This document shows, piece by piece, positions 1,645 to 33,595 of a stretch of 39,172 bases of DNA. Numbering within the stretch: the stretch's first letter is position 1; the number at the start of each line of letters is the position of its first letter. The notes under the pieces were generated by a model. It was given only the letters and a program-made list of their open reading frames with translations. It did no database searches and was not told the origin of the DNA. The stretch spans positions 1-39,172 of the forward strand of contig JABXKD010000033.1 in NCBI GenBank assembly GCA_013375475.1, read 5' to 3'. The position numbers were made by a program, and so were the translations under genes. Origin of the DNA: Promethearchaeota archaeon. Lineage in GTDB: Archaea > Asgardarchaeota > Lokiarchaeia > Sigyniarchaeales > SOKP01.

Positions 1645-1758
1645 CAATATCAACAGTTCCTTTTATTTACTATGATAATGATTAGAATTAATTTAAAATT
1701 TCTACTTTCAAATTAACCTTTAAAGTCTTGATAATTTATATGATAAAAAAAGATTAGG

Positions 1759-5051: not shown

Positions 5052-5091
5052 AGTTTTTATTAAATGTTTATATTTTTAGTTGAAGTTAACT

Positions 5092-6048: not shown

Positions 6049-6192
6049 AAATAGTACCTTGAGAAATAATTTATACTAAAAAAAGTTCTGTTTAATAAAA
6101 ATTTAATCATATGAGTTTTACAAATTACTTTTATCATGTTTTCTTTCGGACGTAAAAAAATATTTAAATTTCTAATAATTACCTATTTTTAG

Positions 6193-8046: not shown

Positions 8047-8080
8047 AAATGTCCTTTATTATTAAAAATGAAGATATTTT

Positions 8081-9334: not shown

Positions 9335-9389
9335 ATAATCATCTCTCTTTTCTGGTTCATATTTCTTATTTTATCCGTAAAAACAAATT

Positions 9390-10889
9390 CTAACTTTTTA
9401 ATACTTTTTCTACGCGAAAAATATGACTCTTCCAACTATCTAATTCAACATATAATCCATTTTTGTTTAGATCTTCTCCTTTATAGTTATACTTGTTCCC
9501 CGTTAAAAGATCTGTAAATCGCCAATCAAAGTGTTCATAGCTTATATCATCGATTATGATATGTGCTTTAGAGGTATTGGAACTGTAATTGACTGTAATT
9601 AATAATCTTTGGTTATCTATTAACCATTGATATGAGATTATGTTGTTATGAGAATTATCATTCATACCCACAGGCTTGGATTTGCATAAGGACCACCTAG
9701 CTTCATCAAACTCTCTTCCAGGAGCAACCCTTAACAATTTATCATAAAATTCTATTAGATTTATATCATCTTCTTCAAATTCGCCCCTTCCTAGTTGAAC
9801 TGGTATTTTAATTTTTTTTCCCCGGGTCTGTCCTTCAAATATTAATCGGGCACCTGGTAATGTTAAAGTAAGGACAGAAGCAGCTTTAGAAGGTTCATAT
9901 CCAAAAGTTGTTAATGCTCTTGGTTCGTCGTGGTTTTCAATAAATCGAAGTAATTTATTCTGATAATCTAAATCGGCATTAAGGTGATCTCGTACGCTTT
10001 GAACTTTAAGACTAGCTAAACATTCGTATAATCTCTTATCATAACAATAATCAAAACCTTGCTGAATTAAATCCCGTTCCATATCCCAATATACTTCAGC
10101 TATGAATTTAAAATCGGGGTATTTTTTTTTTACAACTTGGATGATTTCCTCCCAAAACTCAGTTTCAGGTAATGAACCTGCTTTTTCCCCCCAAGTTTTA
10201 CTAAAAACACTGGTAGTCATTAACATTGCCATATCACATCGAACCCCATCACATTGTTGAGCGATCGAGAGTAAGGTGTTAACTGCTTTTGAGCGAGCTT
10301 CAGCAGAAAACGCGTTAATTTGAACCGTGTCTGTCCAGGGAGGAAAATTAGGATCTCTTCCGTGCGCATACACAATATCTCCAACTGAAAAAAAATCGTA
10401 TGGTTTTGTCATTAGTTCATTTAAAGTCCCCTTAATAAAAACATCAGATTTCTCAAGTGTCCAGAGATGATCAATTGAAACATGGTTTGGTACGTAATCT
10501 AATATCAGCGATATATCCCGTTTTTTTAAGTCTTCTCGGAACGATTTAAGGGCGTCTGGACCGCCTAATTGAGAACTAATGTGATAATAATAAACAGAAT
10601 AAGGCGAACCTACAACATCCTGAGCATTAAAATTTCTCAAAGCTTTACGATAACCCTCCTGTAAACCTTCATGATTCATAGCTATTTCTCTTCCTATAGG
10701 GCTACGTTCCCAAACTCCCATTAACCAGACTACATCAAAAACAGACAATTCTTGGTATATTAACTCAAGGGGAATATCCTTAAGTTTAATATTATAACCA
10801 ATAATATCAGATAAATTAGTTAACCATGGCCACGTGTTAATCTCATATATCTTAGGATGGTTAGGCCAACGACTTCTTTCTATTGGCAT
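9390..10889 (-). CDS. Alpha-amylase family glycoside hydrolase (GH13), no evident signal peptide
   Basis: Conserved GH13 regions LDYVPNH, DGVRCDMA (nucleophile), FIAEVYW (acid/base) and FIENHDE. Confidence 0.92.
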   Translation of the reverse strand: MPIERSRWPNHPKIYEINTWPWLTNLSDIIGYNIKLKDIPLELIYQELSVFDVVWLMGVWERSPIGREIAMNHEGLQEGYRKALRNFNAQDVVGSPYSVYYYHISSQLGGPDALKSFREDLKKRDISLILDYVPNHVSIDHLWTLEKSDVFIKGTLNELMTKPYDFFSVGDIVYAHGRDPNFPPWTDTVQINAFSAEARSKAVNTLLSIAQQCDGVRCDMAMLMTTSVFSKTWGEKAGSLPETEFWEEIIQVVKKKYPDFKFIAEVYWDMERDLIQQGFDYCYDKRLYECLASLKVQSVRDHLNADLDYQNKLLRFIENHDEPRALTTFGYEPSKAASVLTLTLPGARLIFEGQTRGKKIKIPVQLGRGEFEEDDINLIEFYDKLLRVAPGREFDEARWSLCKSKPVGMNDNSHNNIISYQWLIDNQRLLITVNYSSNTSKAHIIIDDISYEHFDWRFTDLLTGNKYNYKGEDLNKNGLYVELDSWKSHIFRVEKVLKS

Positions 10890-11070: not shown

Positions 11071-11652
11071 TTGAAAGTGAGTGAAGAGAAAGACGCGATT
11101 CGAAAGTTAATAATGCTCATTTCCGACCTTCGGGCTAAAGATGAGGAACGATACGAAGCACATGTTAATTTCATGAACGAGACTATCAAAATGATAAGTG
11201 CAATCGAATCCCAAATGAATAAACATTGGTCTACAGTATTAGAATCCCTTAAAGAACTAAATAATAATATTAATACAAATTTAGATTCATTACTTACGGG
11301 TATAAATCCTAAGGGGCTTAGAGAAACTTCGAAATCCCTTCAAGAAATCATGGATACAATGAATAAAAGCGTACAATCAATGAATCTAGAGAAAGTTTTA
11401 AGCGAATTGAAAGTTTTAAAAGCTTCAGCTGCACCTAGCGCACAAGCGTCTTTTCAATCCCAAAATATCCCACTTACTCCAAAACCAGAACCCATCACTG
11501 CAAATATCAACATACAACCTCCTACAGGAATACTCCCTCCAACATCACAAGACGCTGAAGTATATGGATTTGTCCCTGGAAAAAAAAAGAAAAAGAAAGA
11601 TGAAGAAGACGAACCTCATTTAATGAAGCCGAGCGATTTATTTAAAAAATAA
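11071..11652 (+). CDS. Hypothetical protein: helical/coiled-coil N-terminus, Pro-rich linker, Lys/acidic tail
   Basis: 193-aa ORF filling the gap between neighbours. TTG start preceded by SD-like TGTGAT. Confidence 0.7.
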   Translation: MKVSEEKDAIRKLIMLISDLRAKDEERYEAHVNFMNETIKMISAIESQMNKHWSTVLESLKELNNNINTNLDSLLTGINPKGLRETSKSLQEIMDTMNKSVQSMNLEKVLSELKVLKASAAPSAQASFQSQNIPLTPKPEPITANINIQPPTGILPPTSQDAEVYGFVPGKKKKKKDEEDEPHLMKPSDLFKK

Positions 11653-11660
11653 GTAAATAT

Positions 11661-13019
11661 TTATTCTACACTCTTTAATCTCTCCATAAAAGGTTCTACT
11701 TTGGTTTTTACTTGTTCTATGTTTTCTCCTATTTTTTTGAAATTAATTACTATTGCAGGAATATCTAATTCAGATTTTAGCTTTTCCTTTAATTTATCGT
11801 ATGTTTTTGATATTGATGGGCAACCAAACACTTGGTTGAAGATTAAACCATCAATATCCATTTTTTCTGCAACCGTTAAAAACGAATTCGTCAAGTTTTC
11901 ATCGTCACATCCAATACCTTTCGCTGATGCATTCAAGAGAAATCGAGCGTATTCTTCAATTGGACTAGAGTGGGTTGATATGGGAATTTCTTCCAAAAAA
12001 CCTAGAACATCCCAATCTGCATAAATTATTCTTCCCCCTAATTTATAGATAATTTCGTGTACTTCAGGTTCCCATCCTTGATACATTGGAGCAAATAACA
12101 GCCTTGGCATTTTAGAAACATCCATGCCTATACCCTTTCTTATTCTCTCTCTCATTTCTTTAACTAATTGGCTTAAATTTTCTAAATATCGTTGTGAGTT
12201 AGAATTATAATCTTGAAATGTAATTGTTAAAAGAGCTAAAATTTCAGCAAATGTTGCGGGATTACACGGGTAGAAATCTGAGCTACTAATCTCGTAAAGA
12301 ATCGTTTTGTAAAATCTTTTTACTTGGTTTCCAATTCGAAATTGCTTCTGTAAGCTATTATCTGATACAAAATTACCCGTAATGTTTTCCAATTCGCTTA
12401 TTCCGTTCTTAATATTATCAACAATTTGTTCAAGAGCTTCAGTTTCTTTAAATGATTTTTTAGGAGGTACATCGATTAAAATTTGCTTAGGAACAGTTGT
12501 TTTTAACGACTCATAAAACTTATTCCATCTCCCACAGCGCATAGCGAAATTAAGGTGAGCGTCCACATTTTTTCCTTTTGATCTATGCATCCCATAAAGA
12601 GCGTTAATACCGTAGCATAATTCTGAAGGAACGCCATTACTAACACCTAATTCGTACATTTCATTATATTTTTTGTTTATCGAAGTGATAACGTCTTCAA
12701 GGATTTTATCAACAATCTTTAAGACATCGAATTGACGAGCAAAATCCAAAAATTTTGCGGTTAAATCCCAACCTAGAACCGAAGTAGCTGATGTTATTGG
12801 TGTTAAATATCTGCTAAAATCAAAAGATTCCATCCTTATTGGAAAAACTGGAACTGCTCCAACCGCAAAAACTAAATCGGGGAATCCTAAAGCAACAGAA
12901 ATTAATTTCTTCTTTTCTCGAAATTTTTTCTTTCGTAAGTAATCTCTCCCTGTTAAAAAATTTGACGCCATTTTTAGAACAGATGTGAAACTTAGGACAT
13001 CATCAGCGTATACACTCGT
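11661..13019 (-). CDS. 2-hydroxyacyl-CoA dehydratase/benzoyl-CoA reductase family Fe-S subunit, paralog 2; probable ACG start
   Basis: Colinear paralog of 15275..16630, sharing FYPCNPATF and RERIRKGIGMDVS. Cys in LCYG, MRCG and FGC. The ORF track starts at 12971, but homology extends 16 codons further to ACG at 13019. Confidence 0.82.
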   Translation of the reverse strand, partial: TSVYADDVLSFTSVLKMASNFLTGRDYLRKKKFREKKKLISVALGFPDLVFAVGAVPVFPIRMESFDFSRYLTPITSATSVLGWDLTAKFLDFARQFDVLKIVDKILEDVITSINKKYNEMYELGVSNGVPSELCYGINALYGMHRSKGKNVDAHLNFAMRCGRWNKFYESLKTTVPKQILIDVPPKKSFKETEALEQIVDNIKNGISELENITGNFVSDNSLQKQFRIGNQVKRFYKTILYEISSSDFYPCNPATFAEILALLTITFQDYNSNSQRYLENLSQLVKEMRERIRKGIGMDVSKMPRLLFAPMYQGWEPEVHEIIYKLGGRIIYADWDVLGFLEEIPISTHSSPIEEYARFLLNASAKGIGCDDENLTNSFLTVAEKMDIDGLIFNQVFGCPSISKTYDKLKEKLKSELDIPAIVINFKKIGENIEQVKTKVEPFMERLKSVE

Positions 13020-13023
13020 TTTA

Positions 13024-13033
13024 GGATCATCTC
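13024..13033 (-). promoter_or_regulatory. Shine-Dalgarno-like site in front of the ACG at 13019
   Basis: GAGATGATCC matches 9 of 10 positions of GAGGTGATCC, the complement of the typical archaeal 16S 3' end. It lies 4 nt before the ACG. Confidence 0.65.
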
Positions 13034-13141
13034 AAGATACAGTTTAAATTTAAGGTTTTTAGGACTACAATTACAAATTAGTAATTTAAAAGTAATAAAA
13101 TTTATGAGCTAAATTATAAGGTTTTAAAATACTATAATATC

Positions 13142-13606
13142 ATGGAGCCTAGTAAAATTGAATGGAAGAGTAGTTTAATTAAAAGTCTAATATATAGAAG
13201 TATTACGCTTGTACTGGGAACAACCACGGCATATATTTTAACTGGAAGTATCGCAATTGCTACAGGTACCGCACTTTTGACAGAATTAGTCCAAGGAATA
13301 TTCTATTTTGTTTATGAACTTGTGTGGAGTAATATTGCAAGAAGAAAACTCGAAAGTCGCATCTTTAACAGTCTCCAGATTAAAGAAATTGATTTAAAAA
13401 TAAATTATACTTCAATAGAAGAACTAGCTTATGTTCTTTCACAAATAGACACCTTCGTTCCAAAATTATATTTGAGTACCCTCAACATTTTGAATAGTAT
13501 ACTCAAAAATGAAGAATTAGAGGAAATCAGAGAAAAAATTCAAAAATATAAAGATCACTTCCAGAGAGTTCACTCACGTAGAAAATTATTTTTTGTTAAA
13601 GGGTGA
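13142..13606 (+). CDS. DUF2061-like small membrane domain with a C-terminal helical extension
   Basis: SLIKSLIYR...AYILTGSIAIA...FYFVYELVWSNI fits the DUF2061 pattern. Confidence 0.7.
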   Translation: MEPSKIEWKSSLIKSLIYRSITLVLGTTTAYILTGSIAIATGTALLTELVQGIFYFVYELVWSNIARRKLESRIFNSLQIKEIDLKINYTSIEELAYVLSQIDTFVPKLYLSTLNILNSILKNEELEEIREKIQKYKDHFQRVHSRRKLFFVKG

Positions 13607-13951
13607 ACATTTCTATTTTCGATGAAATTTACTAATTTCTAATTCTAAAACTATAATTCTAGTATATTTATGATTCTATAAAGTTTCTTAGAAAAAAATT
13701 AAATAAGATAACTCATTTATATTAATTAGAGATATTAAGTATTTGATATTCTCACACCTGCAAAACTTTTTAGGAATTTAGCTTAAAAAATAAAATTTAG
13801 GAAGGCAGTTACTGTATTAAATTAATTTTTGCCTACTTTCGATAGACAAAAAGCTGAATTTTTAATAATAAAATGACTTACTTCTTAAGGTAGAATTGGC
13901 AATCAAATACTCTAAAGTGATATTTTAGCAAAAAAACAAAAAAATAAGAGA

Positions 13952-15250
13952 GTGATAATAATAAGAACAAAAAATATTGAGAATTTAATAACTATGAACG
14001 AAATTTCTTCAGCTATCCAAAAAACTTTTAACTCTCAATTCAGGATTTCTAAAAAATCTATTATTTCTGAGGATTACCTATTAATAATAGGTCTCAGTGA
14101 AAAAGGGTTTATTTCAGTGGTTCAATCTTCCATAGATAAGAATTTTGAGAGGACTCGCATATCCATTTTGGCGTTTAAAACTAAATCATTAGCTAAAGAA
14201 TTAAAAATACAACATGAATCGCATAATTGGATAAACCTTATTGAAGAAAAATTGATTCAATCATTGAAAACTGAGGTTAAAAATGAATTTCACAATCCAT
14301 TTACAGAACTTTCTAAATTTCAATTAGAGAAAGCTCAAGAAAAAAGGAAAATATTTAAGCTCGAAACAAGAATTCTAAATGTTTTAATAAAGCATTTATA
14401 TCATGTTATTGACTTTTCAGACGGAATTATGAAATTTCCTTTTTCTGTGAACCATATTGATGGAAAGCGGGAAGAATGGGATGAAATTTATTTTCCATAT
14501 GTTGAATTAATTGAAAAAAATATAATTAAAACCAATCTAGAGAATACAAAAGTTTATCGCAACTATAATTTTGCATTAAAGGGTGATAGTTTTCAAAGAG
14601 TAATAGATCTAGTAATGGTTACAACTAAAGAATCTTCCCTAGACCCCAAAAGTCAAGCTACTGAAGAAATAAATCCCTATGATTATGAGATTACTTTTAT
14701 TTATTGTAATAGAACGTCTAAACCATTTAAATATATGAGTTTATTAAAATTTATAAATGAAATTAAGTCGTTTTCAGAGAAATTCAAGAATGATAAAAAA
14801 AATGAGTGCCATAATATCAAGTCACAATTAATTTTAATCTCCCAATTTGGACATGACCTAGAAATTAGAGATTATCTGAGAAGTCATTTGATTAGAGAAG
14901 TAGATTACACTATTCCTTTAATGTTTGTACCTCCTTTTAAAGATAAAGTGTGGCATAATTTTATTGAATATGAGGATTTAAAAACACAAAAGCGAGATGA
15001 TTTGGAGAATATTATCAGAATAGGTAATAAGAGACAAGCATCATATTCTTTTAGGAATAATATGGTAAAAACCGCAAAAAGTGATTATGCTCAGATAATT
15101 GCACGAGATAAATTGGATAAAATCGATAATGAGTTTTTAAATATGTGGTATCAAATATTAAATGTTTCTGAATCAGCGGAAATTCTAAAAATCAATAAAG
15201 ATCAAGAGAAATCTGATAAAGATATTAAAGAGAAGATATCAATATATTAA
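13952..15250 (+). CDS. Hypothetical protein with a possible degenerate Mrr-like PD-(D/E)xK domain
   Basis: Long ORF containing VYRNYNFALKGDSFQRVIDLV...FIYCN...LILISQFGH. The start is uncertain (GTG 13952 or ATG 13994). Confidence 0.55.
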   Translation: MIIIRTKNIENLITMNEISSAIQKTFNSQFRISKKSIISEDYLLIIGLSEKGFISVVQSSIDKNFERTRISILAFKTKSLAKELKIQHESHNWINLIEEKLIQSLKTEVKNEFHNPFTELSKFQLEKAQEKRKIFKLETRILNVLIKHLYHVIDFSDGIMKFPFSVNHIDGKREEWDEIYFPYVELIEKNIIKTNLENTKVYRNYNFALKGDSFQRVIDLVMVTTKESSLDPKSQATEEINPYDYEITFIYCNRTSKPFKYMSLLKFINEIKSFSEKFKNDKKNECHNIKSQLILISQFGHDLEIRDYLRSHLIREVDYTIPLMFVPPFKDKVWHNFIEYEDLKTQKRDDLENIIRIGNKRQASYSFRNNMVKTAKSDYAQIIARDKLDKIDNEFLNMWYQILNVSESAEILKINKDQEKSDKDIKEKISIY

Positions 15251-20291: not shown

Positions 20292-20487
20292 TTTAGGTAA
20301 ATACACCCTTATTAGCGAATTCTAATAATACTAGATTTAAATAGAAATGATTCAAAATTCGATATAATTCTTATAAATAACAGAAACTATTAATCTTTTT
20401 TACATAAATTTACTTAAAAACTGATGATTTTTATTTATTTAATCATATTATATTCATAGATTATAATATAATTTATTGATTATTAAA

Positions 20488-21132
20488 ATGTCTTCGAACA
20501 GAAAGGTTAAAGAAGAAATAATTACGCTTCTCTTAGAGCATTCTAGAATAATATATGATGTCACAAGTGATTGTGCAGTTTACTATACAAATTGGTCTGA
20601 AGATTTTGAATCTAATAAAAAAGATTTAGAAAAGAAAAAGGCGAAGATGCAATTATCTGAAGAGGAAGCTGACGAGTTAAAAATTCAATTAATACAGAAC
20701 TTTTCAGAAGCGGAAGCCTTTAATCTTGGAGCTTATGTAGATTTAGTTCTGAAAATGGATAACATCATTAATTACCCTCTTGAATTTGTCGATATGCTTG
20801 ATAAGATTAAACTTGAAGGCAAGTATGCAAAAGAAATTAAAAAGAAATATCATAAGCTATTAAACCAGGTAATGGAAATGGTTGACATTTTAAAGACAGC
20901 CATAAAGAACTTAAGAGATAAACCAGAATTGGTTTTTGAGAATACTACAACTATACATGAGCACGAATCAGAAATTGATAGGACTTATAGGCAATTTCTT
21001 GAGTTTATATATTCTAATGTTGAAGATATCAGAACGCTATTGAGGGTTAGAGATAGCATAGTTCTTTTAGAACAAATGGCAGACCGAGTTCACGATATTG
21101 CTGATTTAATGAGAGTGTTATTATACCAATAA
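20488..21132 (+). CDS. DUF47/PhoU-like phosphate transport regulator family protein
   Basis: Duplicated helical bundle with EEEADELK, HEHESEIDR and LEQMADRVHDIAD. The ATG at 20488 is preferred over the TTG at 20476. Confidence 0.82.
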   Translation: MSSNRKVKEEIITLLLEHSRIIYDVTSDCAVYYTNWSEDFESNKKDLEKKKAKMQLSEEEADELKIQLIQNFSEAEAFNLGAYVDLVLKMDNIINYPLEFVDMLDKIKLEGKYAKEIKKKYHKLLNQVMEMVDILKTAIKNLRDKPELVFENTTTIHEHESEIDRTYRQFLEFIYSNVEDIRTLLRVRDSIVLLEQMADRVHDIADLMRVLLYQ

Positions 21133-21232: not shown

Positions 21233-21295
21233 CGCATATATTTATTACTCTATTCTAAAATATTATTGATAATTAGAGTAAAAGTGGTTAATATT

Positions 21296-21658
21296 ATGAA
21301 CGGGAAAAAAAAATTTTATTTATTACTCGGCGCATTCCAATTAGTCTTGGTAGCGATCGTTTTTCTAAGCGTAGACGGCGTTATAACATTGGTAGCGGCA
21401 CAAACAGAGAGTTTTGATTATTATAATTCTCCAACTGCTGCCGCGTTAGCAATTTCGGCAGCTATAGCCCTTGCTGCATCGGTATTAGGGAGTGCGTTGG
21501 CTATAAGGACGGTAGGTACAGCAGCAATCTCTTCCTTATCCGAGAGAGAAGAAAGTTTTTTTAAGGCATTTTTAATCGTAGCATTATGCGAAGCACTGGC
21601 CGTGTATGGTTTAATTGTAGCAATCTTACTCTGGACAAAAATCCCTACGCCGATTTAA
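21296..21658 (+). CDS. atpK: A/V-type ATPase proteolipid subunit K (c), single hairpin with an N-terminal hydrophobic leader
   Basis: VGTAAISSLSE...FLIVALCEALAVYGLIVAIL with the ion-binding Glu. The ATG at 21296 is preferred over the TTG at 21266. Confidence 0.92.
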   Translation: MNGKKKFYLLLGAFQLVLVAIVFLSVDGVITLVAAQTESFDYYNSPTAAALAISAAIALAASVLGSALAIRTVGTAAISSLSEREESFFKAFLIVALCEALAVYGLIVAILLWTKIPTPI

Positions 21659-21699: not shown

Positions 21700-22761
21700 A
21701 CGAGTATAATTATTCCATCTTATGCATACACATTCATCAAAATCGATTTTTTAAAGAATTTAATTATTGGCGATGCTACATTAAAAAATTTTGAAACAAT
21801 CAACGATATCCAAATCTTTTTAGAATCTTTAAAACCATATTATCCAAATATGGAAATTAAAAATTATACAATAGAGGAAATAGAAGGAGCTCTAATTAAT
21901 AATTATATTCTGCTAGTTGGAAAAATAATGCACTTTTCTCCATTGAATATGAGGAATTTTTTGAAACAGTATCTAATGAAATTTGAAATTCAAAATCTCA
22001 AGATGATAATCATTAGCTTAATTATAGGGCGAACTAAAGAAGAAACGAGAAAAGATGTTAATTTTTTGTCTGAAGAATATTTAGACAACTCAGATTTAAT
22101 TGAAGAATTGCTTAAAGCGACTAATTTAGATGAAATACAAATCTTGTTGAAAAGAACTCCATATAATATAGCTATTAGAGAAGGATTCCTCTACTTAAAA
22201 AAAAACAAAGAGATTTTTGTCTTAGAAGCCTTTCTGGATCAATTGTATTATAAACAGCTTCAATTACAAACCCAAAATTTGGATAAAAAAGAGAAAACAA
22301 TGATTTCATTATTTGTGAAATACAAAACAGAAATATACAACTTAAATTTAATATATAGAGGAATTAAAAATAACATTGAGAGATCATTATTAAAGCAATT
22401 TTTAGTTCATAATTATTTATTCTTAGATGAAGGTAAACTCGAGTTTTTGTTAAATCTAACTAATCTTAATGATTTTGTATCAACTATAGAACTTTATATT
22501 AGAGAAGCTGAAGAAATTAAGGCACTTTTCATAATATTAAAAATTAGTCAAAAGCACTTAATAGGATCAATTGAGGATTTTTATATTTCTTATTATTTCA
22601 AAAAATTTAAAATTAAAATTGATGATATTGAATATTTCACGATTTCCAAAATATTGGAAGTTATAATTAAAAAAGAAAAAGAAATTAGATTTGAAATTTT
22701 ACCACAAGTTATAAAAATCATTCATAAAAAGTTTAAAGTATTGAAAATGAAGCAGAATTAA
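21700..22761 (+). CDS. atpC: A/V-type ATPase subunit C (d); probable ACG start, 353 aa
   Basis: Operon position; KFEIQNLK, LEAFLDQLYY, EIYNLNLIYRG. The frame is open 50 codons upstream of the ORF-track ATG (21850) and encodes the subunit-C-like YAYTFIKIDFLKNLI. Confidence 0.82.
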   Translation, partial: TSIIIPSYAYTFIKIDFLKNLIIGDATLKNFETINDIQIFLESLKPYYPNMEIKNYTIEEIEGALINNYILLVGKIMHFSPLNMRNFLKQYLMKFEIQNLKMIIISLIIGRTKEETRKDVNFLSEEYLDNSDLIEELLKATNLDEIQILLKRTPYNIAIREGFLYLKKNKEIFVLEAFLDQLYYKQLQLQTQNLDKKEKTMISLFVKYKTEIYNLNLIYRGIKNNIERSLLKQFLVHNYLFLDEGKLEFLLNLTNLNDFVSTIELYIREAEEIKALFIILKISQKHLIGSIEDFYISYYFKKFKIKIDDIEYFTISKILEVIIKKEKEIRFEILPQVIKIIHKKFKVLKMKQN

Positions 22762-22807: not shown

Positions 22808-23119
22808 ATGAAAATTTTTGAATGGGTTGAAGAGATAGAACGCATTTATGAAGAATTAGTTGAGACCGCTAAAAAAGAAAGTTTAGAAGATATACAAAAA
22901 GAAAGAAGTGCTCAAGAGAACTTACTAGAAGATACAACTCGTAAAAACCAAGAAATTATAAATAATGCATTAAAGACAGTTTCAAAAGAGGTTAGTGAAG
23001 AATCGGCCAAATTTGAAGAATTATTAATGAATTTACGTAATAAAATAGAAAAATATTATTATGACAATAAAGAAGATTTAATAAATTCGATATTTAAGGA
23101 ATTGGGTTTTGATTTTTAA
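22808..23119 (+). CDS. atpH: A/V-type ATPase peripheral stalk subunit H (G)
   Basis: 103-aa charged helical protein within the operon. Called from size, composition and position. Confidence 0.7.
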   Translation: MKIFEWVEEIERIYEELVETAKKESLEDIQKERSAQENLLEDTTRKNQEIINNALKTVSKEVSEESAKFEELLMNLRNKIEKYYYDNKEDLINSIFKELGFDF

Positions 23120-23436
23120 TGGTAGAAGAAAAGATACATGTTATTGGTTACGAAGAAATCGTTTCATTATTTGGGCTTTTAGGTATTGAGGGTACTGTTG
23201 TCAATCATGAGGATGATTTCTTGAGAATGTTTGAAGATATAATAAAAAAACCATCGATTGTTATGGTTATTGTAAATATGGATTTATCCGATGATCTTTT
23301 TGAATACTTATTAGATTTTAAAACAAATAATAAAATTCCATTTATCTATCTATTACCTGATATCTTTCAACAGGATGTGACCAAACATGATAAAATTTTT
23401 GATTTGATATACGATTTAATACAAGAACTAATATAA
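23119..23436 (+). CDS. atpF: A/V-type ATPase subunit F
   Basis: KIHVIGYEEIVSLFGLLGI resembles the subunit F N-terminus. 105 aa, with a TAATG overlap. Confidence 0.88.
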   Translation: MVEEKIHVIGYEEIVSLFGLLGIEGTVVNHEDDFLRMFEDIIKKPSIVMVIVNMDLSDDLFEYLLDFKTNNKIPFIYLLPDIFQQDVTKHDKIFDLIYDLIQELI

Positions 23437-23452
23437 AATGAGATGATAAGTT

Positions 23453-24175
23453 ATTAGCGAAGGAGGAGAAATTAAAAAGCGTTTTGGAGAATTAGGTCTG
23501 TATTTAATTAAGCAAGCTGATAATGACATAAAAAGCATTAATCAGCAAATTCTTTTTCAAATAGCAGAGATTAAAAGAAAAAATAAGGAGAGAATATCAG
23601 AAAGCTCAATAAAAATGAGGAAGAATTTTAATGAGATATACAACAATTTATTAAACAACTTCCTTTCTTCGTCTCTTCTGAAAATTAAAGAGGAAGTATT
23701 AAAAACTAAAAATAAATTAATGTTAGATCTCATTTCAGCGTTGACAGATTTAATAGAAGATAAAATTAAAAATAACTACGCAAGCTATATAGCCTTTCTA
23801 CTTACAATCCTTCAAAGTATTAAACCTATTATTGATAAACCGCCAGAAATTAGAATTACATTTAATTCAAAAGATTTTAGTTATTTTAGTGGAAATATGA
23901 ATAAGATAGAAAAAATTTTTACTAATAAGGTAAAGTTAATTAAATCAGAAAAGGAGTTTACGGGGGGATTTGTATGTGTTTTAACTGCGGGAAATATTTC
24001 TTACAATTATACTATTGAGAATCAATTAAAAAGAAATATCACAATTATAGAAATTACTTTTTCAAAGATTTTTTCGGATTTTGAAGCAGATGTAAAAAAT
24101 CTTGAAAATAAGTATATTCAATTTATTCAAAATCAAAAATTAGCTATAAATGATTATTTAAAGGATTATGAATGA
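23453..24175 (+). CDS. atpE: A/V-type ATPase subunit E; probable ATT start
   Basis: FTGGFVC...ISYNYTIE matches the subunit E C-terminal domain. The frame is open 54 codons upstream of the ORF-track ATG (23615). Confidence 0.8.
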   Translation: MSEGGEIKKRFGELGLYLIKQADNDIKSINQQILFQIAEIKRKNKERISESSIKMRKNFNEIYNNLLNNFLSSSLLKIKEEVLKTKNKLMLDLISALTDLIEDKIKNNYASYIAFLLTILQSIKPIIDKPPEIRITFNSKDFSYFSGNMNKIEKIFTNKVKLIKSEKEFTGGFVCVLTAGNISYNYTIENQLKRNITIIEITFSKIFSDFEADVKNLENKYIQFIQNQKLAINDYLKDYE

Positions 24176-26003
24176 AACTCAAGAAAAAGTGCTGTCTGGA
24201 TATGTTTCATCAATCAATGGCTCACTAATAGAGATAAAAGGATTAGAAAATCAAGTACGACTTAACGATCTCATTAGGGTGAAAAATATATTAGGTGAAG
24301 TCATCCAAATTTATTCTGATCATGTAATAGCCCAATGTTTTGAGAATACATTTAATTTAAAATTAAATGAAAAAGTTCTCAGTTTGCAGGAACCTTTATC
24401 TATGGAACTTGGTCCGGGATTATTGGGAAAGATTTTTGATGGAATTCAAAGACCTCTAGAAGCAACTCTTTTAAAATCTAAAACGGGTGGGTTTTTAGAG
24501 AGAGGGTTAGATCTTCCATCCTTATCACGAAAGAAAAAATGGTTGTTTAAACCATCAAAAAAAGTAAATGATTATGTAAGTACTGGTTATATAATCGGCG
24601 TTGTTCAAGAAACTCCATTAATTAAGCATAAAATTTTGGTTCCAGTAGGAATTTCCGGAAAACTAACATTTATCGCAGAAGAAGGAGAGTATACAATAAC
24701 TGATGAAATATATCGCTTGAAGAGAGGTTCGAAAGAAAATACTTTCAATATGATTCAAAAATGGCCGATTACCAAACATCGACCTTATAGAAGGCGGAGT
24801 TACCCGAAAGAACCATTAATTACGGGAATCAGAACAATAGATTTATTATTTCCGATAGTAAAAGGTGGTACAGTTGCAGTTCCTGGAGGTTTTGGAACAG
24901 GGAAGACTGTAATTCAGCAATCTTTGGCAAAATGGTGCAATGCAGATGTTATTATTTTTATAGGATGTGGTGAACGCGGAAATGAAATCGCAGATGTTTT
25001 AAAGCAATTTTCTGAGATTATTGATCCCAAAAGTGGACGCCCATTAATGGAACGAATCGTCCTAATAGCAAACACGTCAAATATGCCTGTATCTGCTCGT
25101 GAAGCTAGTATTTTTTCAGGAGTGACAATTGGAGAGTATTATAGAGATATGGGATATGATGTTGCAGTATTAGCTGACAGTACTTCAAGATGGGCTGAAT
25201 CATTAAGAGAAATCTCTGGATTATTAGAAGAAATGCCTGCAGAAGAAGGTTACCCTGCTTATTTACCATCAAAGATTTCTAGCTTTTATGAACGAGCTGG
25301 GGTTGTTAATATCTATAGTGAAGATGATTCAAATACAGAAAATCTTGGCTCTTTAACAGTAATTGGGTCAGTTTCACCCCCCTCTGGCGATTTCAGCGAA
25401 CCTGTGACTTCCACTACAAAACGCTTTGTTCAAGCTTTTTGGGCATTAGACGCAAATTTAGCCTATTCCAAACACTACCCCGCAATAAATTGGCTAAAAT
25501 CTTACTCCAAATATCCTGAATTTATATCCGATTGGTGGTATGAAAGAGATGTTTATTGGCCTGAGATCGATATAGACTGGTATGAGAGTAGAAGACAATT
25601 CAATAACATACTATCTCAAGAAAATGAGTTAAAAAATGTTACCCAATTAGTTGGAGAAGAAAACTTACCCGAAAGCCAACAGTTTGTCCTTTTTATCTCA
25701 AAATTAGCCAGAAATGGTTTTTTAATCCAAAATGCGTTTGATCCTATTGATAGTTTTACGGATATTAAAAAATTAATGGAGTTTACAAAAATTATTCTCT
25801 TATTATATCATGAGGGCCAACAGCTTATAACTCAAGGGTACCTAATCGATGATATAAAAGATTTAAAGGTGATAGAGGACATTCTGAGAATTGGGTCTTC
25901 AGTTCCTAATAATGAATTTGAGAAAATAGAAGAATTAAAGAAACAACTAATTTATGAAATAGAATCTCTAAAATTAATGCGCGGAGTTTTAAAGAAAAAA
26001 TGA
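24168..26003 (+). CDS. atpA: A/V-type ATPase catalytic subunit A (canonical copy)
   Basis: Walker [51 protein letters not shown]. No intein. Confidence 0.97.
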
Positions 26004-27391
26004 GTGTAATTTATGGAAAAATTAAACAAATTGTTGGACCATTATTGTTTTTAGATAACAAACATGACGTACAATACGGTGAAATCGTTAAAATCCATTC
26101 TGATGATGGTATAGAACGCACTGGACAAGTTATAAAGATGGATGAAAATACGATAACAATTGAAGTTTTTGAAGATACATCAGGTCTCTCTTCAGAAAAT
26201 TCTTTAATTACTTTTACTGAAGATTCATTTAAAATCAAAATATCTAGTGATATGTTCGGAAGAGTCTTCAATTCACTGGGAAAACCGATAGATATTAACA
26301 CTAAACAGGAATTAGATTCTGAACTATTAACCGAAATAGATAGAGATATAAATGGGTTACCAATTAATCCATACGCCCGAGAATACCCCTCTGAAGTTAT
26401 CCAGACAGGAATTTCAGTTATAGATGGGCTTTTTACATTAATAAGAGGTCAAAAACTTCCTATTTTTAGTGGTCAAGGGATGCCTCATAATCTATTAGCT
26501 GCTCAAATTGTAACTCAAGCAAAAGTGTTAACAAAAGAACCTTTTTTGATTATTTTTTGTGGAATAGGGATTATTCAAGATGAAGCTATTTTTTTCATGA
26601 AAAGATTTCAAGAAAGCGGAAATATCCAGAATATCATATCTTTTATTAACTTTGCTGATGATCCAATTATGGAAAGACTAATAGTTCCAAGAGTAGCTCT
26701 TACAACTGCTGAATATTTCGCTTTTGAGAAAGATATGCATGTTCTCGTTATTTTAATTGATATGACAAATTATGCGGAAGCTTTAAGAGAACTAAGCTCT
26801 GCTAAAGAGGAGATTCCGAGTAGAAAAGGCTACCCGGGATACTTATACACCGATTTTGCATCTATCTACGAAAGAACTGGCAGAATTAAAGGTAAAAAAG
26901 GGACAATTACTCAAATACCTATTCTTACAATGCCAAACGATGATATAACTCATCCTATCCCCGATACTACGGGTTATATTACCGAAGGACAATTAGTCCT
27001 GAACAGAAACTTAGATAAGACAGGAATATATCCTCCCTTTGAAGTTTTAGCTTCTATTTCGCGTCTTATGAAAGACTCTATAGGTAAAGACACGACTAGG
27101 GAAGATCACGCTGATGTTAGCTCGCAATTACTCTCTTCATATTCTGCTTCTCTTGAGATTAGAGATCTCATCTCGATTGTAGGAGAAGATGGTTTAAATT
27201 ATAATCAGAAAGCGTTATTAAAATTTGGAAATGAATTCGAGCGGAGTTTTTTAAATCAAGGATACAAAGAAGAAAGAGATATCAACACAACTTTAAATAT
27301 TGCTTGGAAAGCGTTATCTTACATTCCGAGAAATCAATTATTTAGAATACATCATGAATTTATTGATAAATATTACGTTGGAGGGGTGTAA
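26000..27391 (+). CDS. atpB: A/V-type ATPase subunit B
   Basis: [41 protein letters not shown], arginine-finger segment SISRLMK. Confidence 0.97.
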
Positions 27392-28052: not shown

Positions 28053-30524
28053 ATGTCAAAAAAAAATGTTATGGTCCTGTTTAAAGTAAGGTTAAATCGC
28101 AATTATAAGGACATCCTTCTGCAACATCTCTCCCAACTTAAGCTAGTACATATTAAATCGAAATCTGAAAAAAGTAGCAACTATGAGATGGATAAAGATG
28201 TGTTTGATAGAATTAAAACCTTAAGCCAAAGTTTAGAAAGCTTATTTAAAGATCTTAATATCACTGAATCTGACTTCCAAAAACTATCATTTGAAGAGAA
28301 GGACAAACCAAAGTTTAAAGTTAAAGATATAGATGATTTAATTAACCAAGTGTTTAGTGAAATCAATTATTTTTCAAACCGGATAGATGAATTAAAGAAA
28401 TATAAGTCTCTAATTGAAATAGAATTAGATAAAATAAATAACATCCATGGAAGTTACTTATTTTTAGAGAAATATAAATTAACTCGAGATAAATTGATGA
28501 AATTCAAACGGTTAGAATTTAAGGCTTTCACTACTTATTCAAAGAACTTAGAAAATATCGAAATAGTTTTTGATTTCTCTCATTTTCCTAATTTTTTACA
28601 TTATGATTTTTTAAGTGAAAATAGATTAGCATTTTTCATAATATACCCGAAGGAAAAAGAAGCGGAATTTAAAGAGAGGATACGCATAATCCACGCCGAA
28701 GAGGTACCGATTTTAAAGAAATACTTACTTTCAGATGGAATTAATTTTCCGCGTATTGCGAAGGAAATTAAGTTCATTATAACCTCTTTAAATAAGAATC
28801 AGAGAGAATTAGAACGTTTAAGGGATGATAATCTCCTCTTATTTGCAGCCGCTTATGAAATCATTCAAAATTTAGAGGAATATAATTGGGTCTCCTATCA
28901 ATTTGAAGAGTTATCTTCAGATCAATTAAGTTTCAGTTTTTATTTACCTAAAGAAAAAAGACAAGAAATTTATCAAGGGCTAGTAGATAAATTCCAAGAT
29001 AAAATTACAATTGAATCTGTTGAGATTGCAAAAAATAAGACAGTAAAACTAGAATCGGATAAAAGTTCAATACTTTCAGATAAGTCAGTAAACGCAAAAA
29101 AATCTCAATTAAATGAAGAAATCGCAAGTAAAAAAGATAAAAAAGATGACTTAAGAACTTCTGCCCCTACAGTTATGAAAAATATTTTCTTATTTAAGCC
29201 TTTTGAAACAATAACAAAAATGTATGGAATCCCAGCTTATTCAGAGATCGATCCTACTCCTTTAATAGCACTAACTTTTCCACTTTTGTTTGGGATAATG
29301 TTTGGAGATATCGGGCATGGTATAGTTCTAATTATATCTGGTTTGTTAGGTTTTATCTTGTATAAAAATAAAAAAAGTAGAGATTTTTTAAATTTTTGCT
29401 GGATCATTATATATTGTGGTGTTGGGGCTATAATCTTTGGATTTCTATATGGAGACTTTTTTGGAATGCATGAAATTGAAATATTTGGAACTATTTTTTG
29501 GCATCTTACCCCATTATCAATTAGTTCGATTCTATTGTTATTGATACCACTCTTAGGAGATATAGCAATCGTTGGAGGAATTTTAGTTATCATCGGAGTC
29601 CTACTTTTTATAATAAAGCGTAGATTGGGGAAAATCTTTATTGGCTTTGGTGTGTTTATAGCATTATTTAGTTTCATTATTTACATATTAAACCTTCAAG
29701 GAATATTTCATTTACAGATTTTCAATGACACTCTATTTAATCCCTTGAATAATATTTTGTCAGTTTTTAAATTTGCTGTTCTGATTGGAGTTTTCCACCT
29801 TAATTTAGGTTGGTTTATTCAATTTATGAATTATTGGAAACAAAAGAAGAAATACTTAGGTTTTACAGATTCTATAATCAAAATACTTATATTAACGGGG
29901 GGAACGATTTTAATATTTACTTATGGATTCGATATATATACTTGGTTAGATCCTCCCTTTCCCATTTTATTAGTAGTAATTCCCGCCATCCTTCTAATTG
30001 TATTAAAACCTATTGGTAAAATGTTGCATGTCTCTTATCTAAAAAGAGAATCCGTAGGTGGACTTATCGGTGAGGGGACAATGGAAACATTTGAAACCTT
30101 TTTATCAATTTTGAGTAATGTAGCTTCTTATATTAGATTATTAGCATTGGCTTTAGCCCACATTTCATTGATGGTAGCAATTACAGCAATGTCAGATCTT
30201 GTTCAAGGTGGAGGGATAGTCAACGAAATAATTAGTACTATAGGTTTAATTTTTGGAAACATGATAGTAATTTTACTTGAAGGATTACTAGTATTTATCA
30301 ATGCCATTAGGCTACATTTCTATGAATTTTTCTTCAAATTTTATCAAGGAAGCGGAGTGACTTATATTCCTTTTTATTTAGATGATTCATATTCAGAAGT
30401 CACATTTGAAATTAGCAGTATCAAGGATGTTATATCCGAAGAAATAGATAGAGAAATTGAAGCAAAGAAAGGTTATCAAAATATTATAGAGGCAGAAAAA
30501 TATATAACTGGAAAATATTTATAA
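28053..30524 (+). CDS. atpI: A/V-type ATPase subunit I (a), 823 aa
   Basis: YGIPAYSEIDPT, FGIMFGDIGHG, essential Arg in SYIRLLAL, RLHFYEFF.KFY.G.G. Confidence 0.95.
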   Translation: MSKKNVMVLFKVRLNRNYKDILLQHLSQLKLVHIKSKSEKSSNYEMDKDVFDRIKTLSQSLESLFKDLNITESDFQKLSFEEKDKPKFKVKDIDDLINQVFSEINYFSNRIDELKKYKSLIEIELDKINNIHGSYLFLEKYKLTRDKLMKFKRLEFKAFTTYSKNLENIEIVFDFSHFPNFLHYDFLSENRLAFFIIYPKEKEAEFKERIRIIHAEEVPILKKYLLSDGINFPRIAKEIKFIITSLNKNQRELERLRDDNLLLFAAAYEIIQNLEEYNWVSYQFEELSSDQLSFSFYLPKEKRQEIYQGLVDKFQDKITIESVEIAKNKTVKLESDKSSILSDKSVNAKKSQLNEEIASKKDKKDDLRTSAPTVMKNIFLFKPFETITKMYGIPAYSEIDPTPLIALTFPLLFGIMFGDIGHGIVLIISGLLGFILYKNKKSRDFLNFCWIIIYCGVGAIIFGFLYGDFFGMHEIEIFGTIFWHLTPLSISSILLLLIPLLGDIAIVGGILVIIGVLLFIIKRRLGKIFIGFGVFIALFSFIIYILNLQGIFHLQIFNDTLFNPLNNILSVFKFAVLIGVFHLNLGWFIQFMNYWKQKKKYLGFTDSIIKILILTGGTILIFTYGFDIYTWLDPPFPILLVVIPAILLIVLKPIGKMLHVSYLKRESVGGLIGEGTMETFETFLSILSNVASYIRLLALALAHISLMVAITAMSDLVQGGGIVNEIISTIGLIFGNMIVILLEGLLVFINAIRLHFYEFFFKFYQGSGVTYIPFYLDDSYSEVTFEISSIKDVISEEIDREIEAKKGYQNIIEAEKYITGKYL

Positions 30525-30555: not shown

Positions 30556-31089
30556 ATGACTATGAAAGATGAAGATGGTATAGAAAACTCATCCCAAAAA
30601 AATAACTTTCGAGTCATACTCCTTTCGATCGTTTATTTAATAGCACTGGTATTTGCGTTTATTGTCATGTTAAATTTTGGAGTAGATCCATTTATAATCA
30701 TTATATTACTAGCTTTTATATCTTTATTAATCTTAGGATCCATTTTAAAGCGTAGAAAACAGAAATCACTATATTCAAAATTATATCCCGATAAAAAACA
30801 AATTACAATTCAAAGACCGACAAGAAAATTAGAATTGACTATTAAAGAAGAACAAGAGGCACCTATAGACAAAAAATTCAGAGAAGTGAACTTAAATTTT
30901 AAATATCGCAAATCTCTCATCAACAAATGTGAAAATTGCGGAATGATTATAACAAGTCATAAAAAAAAATGTCCTATATGTGGTAAAGCTCTCGAACTGA
31001 AAGGAATTATCATGAAATGCAAAAAATGTGGAATGACAATTCCAAAATCAGTGAAAAAATGTCCTGTTTGTGGAACGCGTGTAAGTTAA
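30556..31089 (+). CDS. Two-TM membrane protein with C-terminal tandem zinc ribbons
   Basis: Two hydrophobic helices, then CENC-x10-CPIC and CKKC-x10-CPVC. Confidence 0.8.
   Translation: MTMKDEDGIENSSQKNNFRVILLSIVYLIALVFAFIVMLNFGVDPFIIIILLAFISLLILGSILKRRKQKSLYSKLYPDKKQITIQRPTRKLELTIKEEQEAPIDKKFREVNLNFKYRKSLINKCENCGMIITSHKKKCPICGKALELKGIIMKCKKCGMTIPKSVKKCPVCGTRVS
30925..31074 (+). repeat. Intragenic duplication of a 60-nt zinc-ribbon unit (period 90 nt)
   Basis: 30925-30984 and 31015-31074 encode KCENCGMIITSHKKKCPICG and KCKKCGMTIPKSVKKCPVCG. Confidence 0.75.
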
Positions 31090-31124: not shown

Positions 31125-32969
31125 ATGAAAATGGTCGTGGAAAAAAACAAGTCAACAGTGGGTTTTATTTCTGCTGTTTATGGTTCATTAGTCGAAATTA
31201 AAGGATTGGAAGATCATGTTCGCCTGGATGATTTAATAAAAATTACTAAGCACGATTTTTTATGTGAAGTAATTCAGATTTATTCTGATCGTATCATAGC
31301 CCAATGTTTCGAAAGCACAAATAGTATTAAATTAAAAGAAAAAGTTGTTTCTCTCTATCAACCTTTATCTATGGAACTAGCACCAGGTTTATTGGCAAAT
31401 GTATTTGATGGAATTCAAAGGCCGCTTGATATAACCTTTGAATACTTTCAAGAAGGGAAATTAAATAGAGGACTTGAATTTCCACCCCTATCAAGAAAAA
31501 AAAAATGGCATTTTATTCCAACAAGGAAAGTGAATGATTTTGTTCTTAGTGGAGATGAGATTGGAATCGTGCAAGAAACATCATTGATAGAACACAAAAT
31601 AATGGTACCTCCCAGTAAATCTGGAATTTTATCGTTTATAACTGATGAAGGAGACTATACAATTATTGATGAAATCTATACCCTAAAAAATGATAGTGAT
31701 GAAAAATCTTATTGTATGTTGCAAAAATGGCCAGTAACAAAAAGAAAACCTTTTTGCGAAAAAGAACAACCTAACGAGCCGTTAATAACTGGTGTGCGTA
31801 TTATTGATTTATTATTTCCTGTGGCAAAAGGGGGTACTTTTGCAGTTCCAGGAGGATTTGGAACGGGTAAAACAATACTACAGCAAAATATAGCTAAGTA
31901 TTGCGACGCAGATTTGATTGTATTCATAGGTTGCGGGGAACCGGGGAATGAAATTGCCAATGCTCTAAAACAATTTAGAGAAACTGTTGATCCTAATACT
32001 GGACACTCTTTATTAGAAAGAATTGCCCTTATTGTAAACACTTCAAATATGCCTGTGTCCGCCCGAGAATCAAGTCTTTTCTCAGGTATAACGGTCGCAG
32101 AATATTACAGAGACATGGGATACAATGTTGCTGTTATTGCAGATAGTATTTCAAGATGGGCAGAATCACTCAGAGAGATTTCGGGGCTTTTAGAGGAAAT
32201 GCCCGCCGAAGAAGGTTACCCCGCTTATTTACCTTCGAAATTATCAAGTTTTTATGAACGTGCTGGTATCTTTACAACTTTAGGACATGATTCTAACGGA
32301 AAAAGACGAAGAGGTTCTATAACAATTATAGGATCAGTATCTCCTCCTGCAGGGGATTTTAGTGAGCCAGTTACATCCGCTACAAAACGCGTTGTTCAGG
32401 GAATATGGGCTCTGGACCCCAAATTAGCATATCTTAAACATTATCCTGCCATTAGTTGGATAAATTCCTATTCAAATTACCCTGAATATTTAGCAGATTG
32501 GTGGGAACAGATAGATAAAGATTGGAATGACATTAAACTCGATTGGTCTGAGTGTAGAAAGCAAACAAATGAGATTTTAGCAAAAGAAAACGATCTAAGA
32601 TATATTACCCAACTACTTGGACAAAGAAATTTAGCTGAAGATCAAAAATTAGACCTTTATACAGCAAATCTTATAAGAAATGCCTTTTTCGTCCAAAATG
32701 CTTTCAATGAGATCGATAATTATACAAGTAGCAGAAAAATGTTAGGTCTCATTAAAGTTATACTTCTTTTATATAATAAAAGTAAATCGCTAATAAAGCG
32801 GGGTTTTATTATAAACGATAAATCATGTGACGCTGTCTTCGAGGAGATCATGCGAATTAGTCACTATGTTCCTAATAAGGATTTCGGGCCAATTGATAAG
32901 CTGAAGAAGAGTATTGATAATGAATCAATAAATTTAGTCTACAAAATTCAACGTAAAAAGAAGAATTAG
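31125..32969 (+). CDS. atpA: Second A/V-type ATPase subunit A with a GERGNE to GEPGNE substitution
   Basis: Full-length paralog of 24168..26003. Walker A GGFGTGKT is intact. GCGEPGNE (CCG at 31941-31943) and ADSISRWAE deviate from consensus. Confidence 0.93.
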   Translation: MKMVVEKNKSTVGFISAVYGSLVEIKGLEDHVRLDDLIKITKHDFLCEVIQIYSDRIIAQCFESTNSIKLKEKVVSLYQPLSMELAPGLLANVFDGIQRPLDITFEYFQEGKLNRGLEFPPLSRKKKWHFIPTRKVNDFVLSGDEIGIVQETSLIEHKIMVPPSKSGILSFITDEGDYTIIDEIYTLKNDSDEKSYCMLQKWPVTKRKPFCEKEQPNEPLITGVRIIDLLFPVAKGGTFAVPGGFGTGKTILQQNIAKYCDADLIVFIGCGEPGNEIANALKQFRETVDPNTGHSLLERIALIVNTSNMPVSARESSLFSGITVAEYYRDMGYNVAVIADSISRWAESLREISGLLEEMPAEEGYPAYLPSKLSSFYERAGIFTTLGHDSNGKRRRGSITIIGSVSPPAGDFSEPVTSATKRVVQGIWALDPKLAYLKHYPAISWINSYSNYPEYLADWWEQIDKDWNDIKLDWSECRKQTNEILAKENDLRYITQLLGQRNLAEDQKLDLYTANLIRNAFFVQNAFNEIDNYTSSRKMLGLIKVILLLYNKSKSLIKRGFIINDKSCDAVFEEIMRISHYVPNKDFGPIDKLKKSIDNESINLVYKIQRKKKN

Positions 32970-32992: not shown

Positions 32993-33595
32993 TTAGGGTT
33001 TAAACCATTCAAAGAAGTAGTAACTTAAGGTTAGAGGATTAGCTATAACAAACTTCTTCCTCACTGAAGTAGCCAAACGTCCTGCACGTACCATATCAAT
33101 AGCGGTTATTTTTGCGTCATGAGGCAAAACATGAGCTATAAACGGAGAGTGCTCTAATCCCGGTCCTTTTTTGTATACTACAAAATCAGCACCAAACTTT
33201 AAACCCGGTCGGGGGATGTATCCTTTCTTTCTTAAATCCTGATAAATTACATATTTTTCTTCAAATTTATAGTGATTTTTTTTACTTATTTCATAAAATT
33301 CATCGTATGAGTAGAATTTATCAATTTTAGGGTCGTAAATAGTAATTTTATCGTTTTTTAGCAAATATAAAGCTTCTATTAGGGATAATTCCGAAGGTTT
33401 AGAAAAATATTCTAATCGAGGTTTGCTTATCCCAAGAGGAGATCCAAAAAACTTTTGTTTTACATATAAATACGATGCATAGAGAGGATTAAAAACAATA
33501 ACGCGATTATTAATATATTTAGCTGGAATCTTGGCTGGGATTAATTTTTCGTCTATATCCTCCAGTGAAATAGGCGATTCTTTTTCGTCAGTCAT
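32993..33595 (-). CDS. endA: tRNA-intron (splicing) endonuclease
   Basis: LSLIEALYL, GLKFGADFVVYKKGPGLEHS and RLATSVRKK contain the Tyr/His/Lys catalytic triad. Confidence 0.95.
   Translation of the reverse strand: MTDEKESPISLEDIDEKLIPAKIPAKYINNRVIVFNPLYASYLYVKQKFFGSPLGISKPRLEYFSKPSELSLIEALYLLKNDKITIYDPKIDKFYSYDEFYEISKKNHYKFEEKYVIYQDLRKKGYIPRPGLKFGADFVVYKKGPGLEHSPFIAHVLPHDAKITAIDMVRAGRLATSVRKKFVIANPLTLSYYFFEWFKP

Follow-up and report, generated by a model that had tools for sequence, protein, structure and literature searches.

A second A subunit with proline in place of an active-site arginine in the A/V-type ATPase operon of a Lokiarchaeial family

The three catalytic subunits of a rotary ATPase are generally regarded as identical, and regulation of these enzymes is ascribed to small inhibitors, to MgADP inhibition and to rotor stoichiometry. 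The non-catalytic subunits of the head, B in archaeal/vacuolar (A/V) enzymes and alpha in F-type enzymes, arose before LUCA, the last universal common ancestor, and lost the P-loop or the catalytic Glu, according to an ATP-synthase evolution preprint. Here we describe a 39,172-nucleotide stretch of DNA (the window; contig JABXKD010000033.1 of assembly GCA_013375475.1, from an uncultured Promethearchaeota archaeon) in which a complete A/V-type ATPase operon carries two genes for subunit A. The first, A1, encodes the canonical catalytic subunit. The second, A2, encodes a paralog of that subunit which is confined to one family, is under selection and has Pro in place of a phosphate-binding Arg. 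The closest described system is the A/V-ATPase subunit A itself (AtpA/NtpA): homology extends over the full length of A2 (E value 1e-165 to the Pyrococcus horikoshii A subunit), and the best Protein Data Bank matches are the A subunits of P. horikoshii (3M4Y/1VDZ), Enterococcus hirae (3VR2) and Thermus thermophilus (3A5C).

An intact paralog with proline after the catalytic glutamate

The features of A2 and A1 that bear on the comparison are as follows.

31125 to 32969, plus strand: A2, second A/V-ATPase subunit A, 614 amino acids; uninterrupted open reading frame (ORF), last gene of the operon
24168 to 26003, plus strand: A1, canonical catalytic subunit A with the Glu-Arg pair (Arg codon CGC at 24975-24977)
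31851 to 31874, plus strand: P-loop of A2, GGFGTGKT, residues 243-250, kept
31938 to 31940, plus strand: GAA, Glu272, the catalytic Glu, kept
31941 to 31943, plus strand: CCG, Pro273, where the Glu-Arg pair would have its phosphate-binding Arg
31959 to 31961, plus strand: AAT, Asn279, in a column occupied by Asp or Glu in every other A subunit
32076 to 32078, plus strand: Leu318, the other of two diagnostic substitutions; A subunits apart from A2 have Ile
25530 to 25580 (A1) and 32490 to 32540 (A2), plus strand: Trp-rich insertion, residues about 455-475, from the alignment

A1 and A2 are identical at 362 of 609 positions (59%; 77% positives, 5 gaps; BLASTP). The database gene model of A2 begins two codons later, at 31131, and yields a protein of 612 residues (P0002). 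An initial annotation, made from the sequence alone, had described A2 as an intact, full-length paralog reading GCGEPGNE, with CCG at 31941, against GCGERGNE in A1, with CGC at 24975; both codons read as claimed (GAA CCG GGG in A2, GAA CGC GGA in A1). Arg, which the annotation had allowed orthologs might still show, is found at this position in none of the 33 A2 proteins aligned; all have Pro, and all 54 other A subunits in the alignment have Arg. The P-loop and the catalytic Glu are retained, as had also been noted. Glu272 and Lys249 are present in 33 of 33 A2, residue 250 is Thr or Ser in all of them, and the Walker-B Asp340 and Arg344 (ADSxSR) are likewise invariant. A 13-residue stretch singled out in the annotation is also present in A2. 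The change of ADSTSR to ADSISR, offered there as a further mark of A2, did not hold up: Ile occurs in only 14 of the 33 A2 and is not diagnostic. Column 318 is diagnostic, with Leu in 33/33 A2 versus Ile (53) or Val (1) in the other A subunits. Arg273Pro and Ile318Leu are the sole two columns that divide all A2 from all other A subunits. Column 279 comes close, being acidic in 54/54 other A subunits and in 1/33 A2 (Asn 26, His 3, Tyr 2, Ser 1, Asp 1). Elsewhere, 69 of the 87 columns that are invariant in 52 other A subunits stay unchanged across all 28 A2 first examined.

A2 matches the Pfam families PF00006 (ATP-synt_ab, 1.7e-69), PF16886 (barrel-sandwich bulge, 9.9e-28) and PF22919 (V/A C-terminal, 1.2e-15), all of which are found in A1 too; PF02874 (N-barrel) passes in A1 only, and the Pfam scan revealed no extra domain in A2. 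An AlphaFold2 model built from a 62-row alignment is mediocre (mean predicted local distance difference test score, 70.5) and was used solely to locate residue 273, which is predicted to lie between strand 264-270 and helix 276-286. A2 lacks the Arg that directly follows the catalytic Glu in a catalytically competent A subunit; it also differs from the non-catalytic B and alpha subunits in having an intact P-loop and the catalytic Glu, and it branches within its own family's A subunits.

The distribution of A2 is sharply bounded. Of 400 species genomes of the Asgard phylum, 75 contain the back-translated GCGEPGNE pattern, and each of these belongs to the window's own Lokiarchaeial GTDB family (74 of 134 family genomes plus the window genome, i.e., 75/135); the pattern is absent from all 265 genomes of the remaining 32 families. 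Each of the four Pro codons (CCA, CCT, CCG, CCC) is in use among the 75 genomes. A protein search of the family yielded six further second copies (genomes G190, G193, G194, G228, G162 and G163, the last two from genus g7) with a motif slightly different at a flanking residue; all six are Glu-Pro. A2 is carried by at least 81 of the family's 135 species, and every second copy inspected has Pro. A single A subunit was found in each of ten genomes from ten other Asgard families. Among 120 database cluster representatives retrieved by protein search (one being the window's own), 99 are Glu-Pro, 21 Glu-Arg and none has another pair; Pro and Leu318 occur together in 96 of the 99 Pro-type proteins. 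The best 150 representatives at 50% identity include no Glu-Pro protein, 125 Glu-Arg proteins (99 by pattern, 26 by eye) and 10 other variants, the remainder being fragments or intein-bearing.

Two side observations emerged from these searches. Many of the best 150 representatives are 900-1130 amino acids long and show two matched stretches. Furthermore, ten A-like cluster representatives from elsewhere do not have the canonical Glu-Arg pair, the Glu being lost in most of them (P0179, P0181, P0190, P0200, P0213, P0233, P0249, P0254, P0255 and P0257); they include DFA_05595 of Cavenderia fasciculata and an Oscillospiraceae protein. Degenerate paralogs of subunit A may occur more widely than has been assumed.

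Descent and selection of A2

A quick-search maximum-likelihood tree (LG+G4) covers 87 A subunits; not included are a divergent A subunit of genome G249 and three distant outgroups. The locus search had returned mostly A subunits of unrelated phyla, one peptide pattern being universal, and these served as outgroups only. In the tree, 32 of the 33 A2 form one clade (Shimodaira-Hasegawa-like approximate likelihood ratio test, 87), whose internal branching mirrors that of the A1 tree. The remaining A2, from genome G147, adjoins this clade together with its own A1; monophyly of all 33 A2 is not rejected in the approximately unbiased test (p = 0.425). A 6-residue Trp-rich insertion in the C-terminal domain is present in every aligned A1 and A2 of the family; the 12 outgroup A subunits all lack it, among them one whose family is a sister within the same order. 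This insertion, together with the single A subunit of other families, bears out the proposal of the initial annotation that the shared Trp-rich segment reflects a lineage-specific duplication. Judged from the sequences, A2 goes back to a single duplication within the family and was then inherited vertically, with losses at later times. The G147 pair (5261-7087 and 11924-13717 of locus L090) is unusual in that its A1 and A2 are 81% identical, versus about 60% elsewhere; nonsynonymous divergence (dN) is 0.10 and the proportion of synonymous differences (pS) 0.35, against 0.2-0.34 and 0.57-0.74 in other genomes. This suggests gene conversion in G147. The Arg/Pro and Ile/Leu differences persist there despite the high identity.

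The ratio of nonsynonymous to synonymous divergence (dN/dS; NG86 method) ranges from 0.085 to 0.25 for A2 and from 0.08 to 0.21 for A1, as calculated from those 73 of 276 genome pairs whose dS is less than 1.5. The median dN(A2)/dN(A1), taken across the full set of 276 pairs, is 1.20. The existence of a conserved GEPGNE clade with dN/dS below 1, which had been put forward as a check on the annotation, is thereby confirmed. The excess of change in A2 is unevenly spread. In the same 28 genomes, the rate of A2 relative to A1 is 1.0-1.1 in the N-terminal barrel, the linker and the bulge, 1.26-1.72 in the nucleotide-binding domain and 1.35 in the C-terminal domain. Within A2, the core stretch 301-370 is strongly conserved (p-distance 0.099). 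The ring-building parts of A2 are constrained like those of a working subunit, whereas the catalytic and moving parts are relaxed yet conserved.

These data bear on the simplest alternative, namely that A2 is a decaying duplicate or that its CCG codon, one base away from CGG, is a sequencing error. DNA contigs from three marine-sediment runs of two studies are near-identical to the A2 gene and cover it, although the contigs alone do not settle the CCG codon; the codon is taken as genuine because Pro is conserved across species. The intact frame also speaks against decay, as the annotation had argued from the many synonymous differences between the copies, and decay or error is ruled out by the variety of Pro codons in the 75 genomes, by dN/dS values of about 0.1-0.25 and by the old, vertically inherited clade. 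The chance that A2 is such an artifact or relic is vanishingly small.

The operon and its surroundings in relatives

The remaining genes of the locus are listed below.

21266 to 21658, plus strand: K
21850 to 22761, plus strand: C
22808 to 23119, plus strand: 103-amino-acid ORF occupying the position of H, with no Pfam match
23119 to 23436, plus strand: F
23615 to 24175, plus strand: E
26000 to 27391, plus strand: B subunit, the sole B of the genome
27437 to 28030, plus strand: D
28053 to 30524, plus strand: I
30556 to 31089, plus strand: 177-amino-acid protein with two C-terminal zinc ribbons (Pfam), between I and A2
32993 to 33595, minus strand: endA, tRNA-intron endonuclease gene, convergent to A2 and lying 23 nucleotides downstream of it

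The operon, entirely on the plus strand, has the order usual in the family, K-C-H-F-E-A1-B-D-I-Zn-A2, where Zn denotes the zinc-ribbon gene. The latter is separated from A2 by 35 nucleotides in AT-rich DNA. Since endA converges on A2 from the opposite strand, A2 is the last gene of the operon. The initial annotation had found no second B gene in the window, and this holds throughout the genome (3.92 Mb; marker-gene completeness, 100%; contamination, 6.4%), where matches are limited to A2, A1 and one B. Upstream of the c-subunit gene lies a 218-amino-acid ORF with no Pfam match (20476-21132), whose position is kept in most loci of the family.

The arrangement recurs in relatives. Among 69 genomes holding both motifs, 53 have A2 on the same strand as A1 and 6610-7183 nucleotides downstream of it. 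In 15 others the two genes are on different contigs; in seven of these that were inspected (including G209, G218, G219, G251, G256 and G265), the contigs break within or beside the operon. A2 is the final operon gene in 28/28 family loci examined in which the flank is visible, and the zinc-ribbon gene precedes it in all 28. The zinc-ribbon protein was considered as an A2-specific partner and rejected, the gene being retained after I in operons that have no A2 (loci L105, L108, L122, L123, L106, L107, L110, L147 and L010). Apparently it is an accessory gene, so far undescribed, of the ATPase operon in this family. Where A2 is absent, the neighboring genes are unchanged (I, the zinc-ribbon gene, the endonuclease gene and Memo). 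No A2 remnants were found in four A2-less operons and seven other gaps; the search gave just weak wrong-strand matches, which were found in A2-bearing loci as well.

Two loci of the family stand apart for other reasons. In L122 (genome G183), the A1 frame (11166-14633) comprises 1155 amino acids, about twice the normal length, and likely contains an intein. In L104 (10295-13571), from the 100%-complete genome G249, the A and B subunits are divergent, scoring about half the bits of the family's own type, and the I and K genes are on the opposite strand; the ATPase of this genome may have been replaced or acquired.

Candidate roles of A2 and comparison with known systems

Pro273 aligns with Arg264 of the P. 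horikoshii A subunit and, by motif position, corresponds to Arg262 of E. hirae A; in Escherichia coli F1, we take the equivalent residue to be beta-Arg-182. In E. hirae, Arg262 is in contact with the gamma-phosphate, as are the P-loop Lys and the B subunit's Arg finger (PMC5095293; bioRxiv 10.1101/2021.12.07.471682). The E. coli substitutions beta-R182Q and beta-R182K abolish ATP synthesis and phosphate (Pi) binding (PMC3268026), with ATPase values of 0.020 and 0.25, respectively, against 42 for the wild type (PMC3268026, Table 1). This literature on the homologous Arg agrees with the view of the initial annotation that the residue is needed for rotary ATPase catalysis.

We rate as roughly an even prospect that A2 sits with B in the head, binding nucleotide but nearly inactive, and throttles the motor. 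The initial annotation had likewise suggested a subunit that binds nucleotide but is impaired and could enter A3B3 as a brake, or else serve as an assembly factor or sensor. In this scheme, A2 would still bind Mg-nucleotide but would have lost most catalytic power through the invariant Pro that stands in place of the Arg holding the gamma-phosphate or Pi. Made from the same operon as A1, with one B only, it would most likely join B and the stalks in the A1AO head, replacing some or all of the A1 subunits; we infer assembly with B from the shared operon, the single B and the domain-wise pattern of constraint. In a fermentative, energy-limited cell, a head with A2 in it would come to a halt or rotate very slowly on ATP, A2 thereby serving as a throttle on ATP hydrolysis that is built into the enzyme. 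A membrane pyrophosphatase is present in the window genome (G000:C22:54536-56545), and PF00361, PF00346, PF03116 and PF03977 (Mrp/Nuo antiporter-like, Complex1_49kDa, RnfD/E and OAD_beta) have no match in the whole genome; in view of both results, the ATPase may mostly serve as an ATP-driven ion pump. The pyrophosphatase, which occurs in 110 of the 135 family genomes, often in 2-4 copies, was considered as a correlate of A2 and rejected, as it is found with or without A2.

Several points weigh against the throttle. A2 is missing from about 40% of the family's species, including 100%-complete genomes with the same synteny (L105), and is therefore dispensable. In one complete chromosome (G189, 3.34 Mb; loci L005 and L096) the operon is split into halves about 860 kb apart, with A1-B-D at 2.19 Mb, where K, C, H, F and E are lacking within 10 kb upstream, and I-Zn-A2 at 3.06 Mb. 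The A2 gene of genus g7 evolves fast and stands alone, far away from the operon (L145, 9072-10925; L146, 1154-3031), with GH3, alpha/beta-hydrolase, histidine-phosphatase and MFS genes as neighbors, while the ATPase operon of that genus (L147) terminates with I and the zinc-ribbon gene. Expression is hinted at, weakly, by two 151-nucleotide contigs (31832-31982, 2 differences; 32020-32170, 1 difference) from one RNA library, which may contain DNA. F1 in which one of three other key residues is changed to alanine continues to rotate, slowed by a factor of 1000 to 10000 (PMC5380711), so that "dead" may overstate the condition of A2. Some chemistry may persist in A2, given that Glu272, Lys249, Asp340 and Arg344 are invariant, whereas residues of this kind are lost from truly non-catalytic B and alpha subunits. 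Finally, the strict invariance of the Pro suggests a gained property beyond the loss of Arg.

The dispensability of A2 and its independence in genus g7, beside unrelated genes, would fit a protein whose role lies elsewhere than in the ATPase (a soluble nucleotide sensor, say, or a member of some other complex) and which is only carried along by the operon. This appears improbable in the face of A2 being the last gene of the operon in all 28 examined family loci with a visible flank, of a hexamer-building barrel and bulge that are constrained as in A1 and of the lack of any new domain.

The invariance of the Pro goes beyond what the initial annotation had envisaged and speaks for a specific role rather than plain loss; taken with the retained catalytic Glu, it argues for more than simple inactivation. 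One possibility along these lines is that A2 still works as a catalytic isoform, a slow, "low-power" version of subunit A that takes the place of A1 at very low energy, with the Pro reshaping the site. The catalytic Glu, the P-loop Lys/Thr, the Walker-B Asp and Arg344 are all invariant in 33/33 A2, the Pro itself is found in 99/99 Pro-type database proteins and is written with all four codons, the core 301-370 is very conserved, and F1 mutants deprived of single key residues rotate slowly (PMC5380711). Against this, the beta-R182Q and beta-R182K substitutions abolish synthesis and Pi binding and leave about 0.05-0.6% of the ATPase (PMC3268026), A2 has no conserved basic residue that could compensate (neither of the two diagnostic columns is basic), and no part of the protein is more relaxed than the nucleotide-binding domain. 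A slow isoform is an unlikely explanation on balance, if one deserving attention.

A further alternative departs from the presence of A1 and A2 in one operon with one B. If the two were mixed in the same head, one or two of the three sites would make ATP per turn. Forced rotation would pass the inactive site, and the ion/ATP ratio would rise 1.5- or 3-fold; the enzyme would be one-way, with hydrolysis stalling at the Pro site. This logic follows from general knowledge of rotary catalysis. To our knowledge, re-gearing has so far been seen on the rotor side only, through c-ring size or c subunits without an ion site, whereas this would be a gear shift on the stator side. If correct, it would allow ATP synthesis at ion-motive forces too low for the normal A1AO enzyme. 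The assembly domains, as constrained as in A1, and the origin of the lineage in energy-poor marine sediment are in keeping with it. However, operation in the synthesis mode is made doubtful by the lack of a match to the four primary ion-pump families, the pyrophosphatase being the only pump found and occurring in 110/135 family genomes regardless of A2, and nothing points to mixed heads or a fixed stoichiometry. We consider this alternative quite unlikely.

A search of the open-access literature returned no account of an Asgard A paralog, and the motif strings gave unrelated matches only; supplements, which could list such a paralog, were outside its coverage. The paralog goes unmentioned in the available portions of two ATP-synthase evolution papers. 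With AtpA/NtpA, A2 shares the Pfam domains, the P-loop, the catalytic Glu, the Walker B motif, the PAYL stretch and the operon. It differs in having Pro for Arg and Leu for Ile318, in the loss of the acidic residue 279 and in being a second copy beside a canonical A. Like B and alpha, A2 is a paralog of the catalytic subunit for which a place in the hexamer, nucleotide binding and reduced catalysis are proposed; unlike them, it arose within one Lokiarchaeial family, keeps both the P-loop and the catalytic Glu and has lost the Arg only. The proposed limit on wasteful ATP hydrolysis recalls IF1, bacterial epsilon and Paracoccus zeta, a purely functional resemblance. These are unrelated small inhibitors that bind from outside, whereas A2 would act as a subunit of the ring itself. 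F1 hybrids with one altered beta subunit reportedly pause at the mutant site. A hybrid of this type, TF1 with a single altered beta, has been studied by rotation assay (PMC2755722), and the E. coli beta-R182Q/K mutants, in which the Arg missing from A2 is replaced, lose synthesis and nearly all hydrolysis (PMC3268026). Unlike these engineered hybrids and mutants, A2 is a natural gene under purifying selection: a second "catalytic" subunit, strongly selected, encoded in the same operon and differing essentially by one active-site residue. As such it constitutes a natural experiment on the role of the Glu-Arg pair. If the throttle or the gear shift is real, A2 would represent a new way to slow or re-gear the motor, in an Asgard family from energy-starved sediments. 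It would also display an early step in the passage from catalytic to non-catalytic subunit, the path that gave B and alpha before LUCA.

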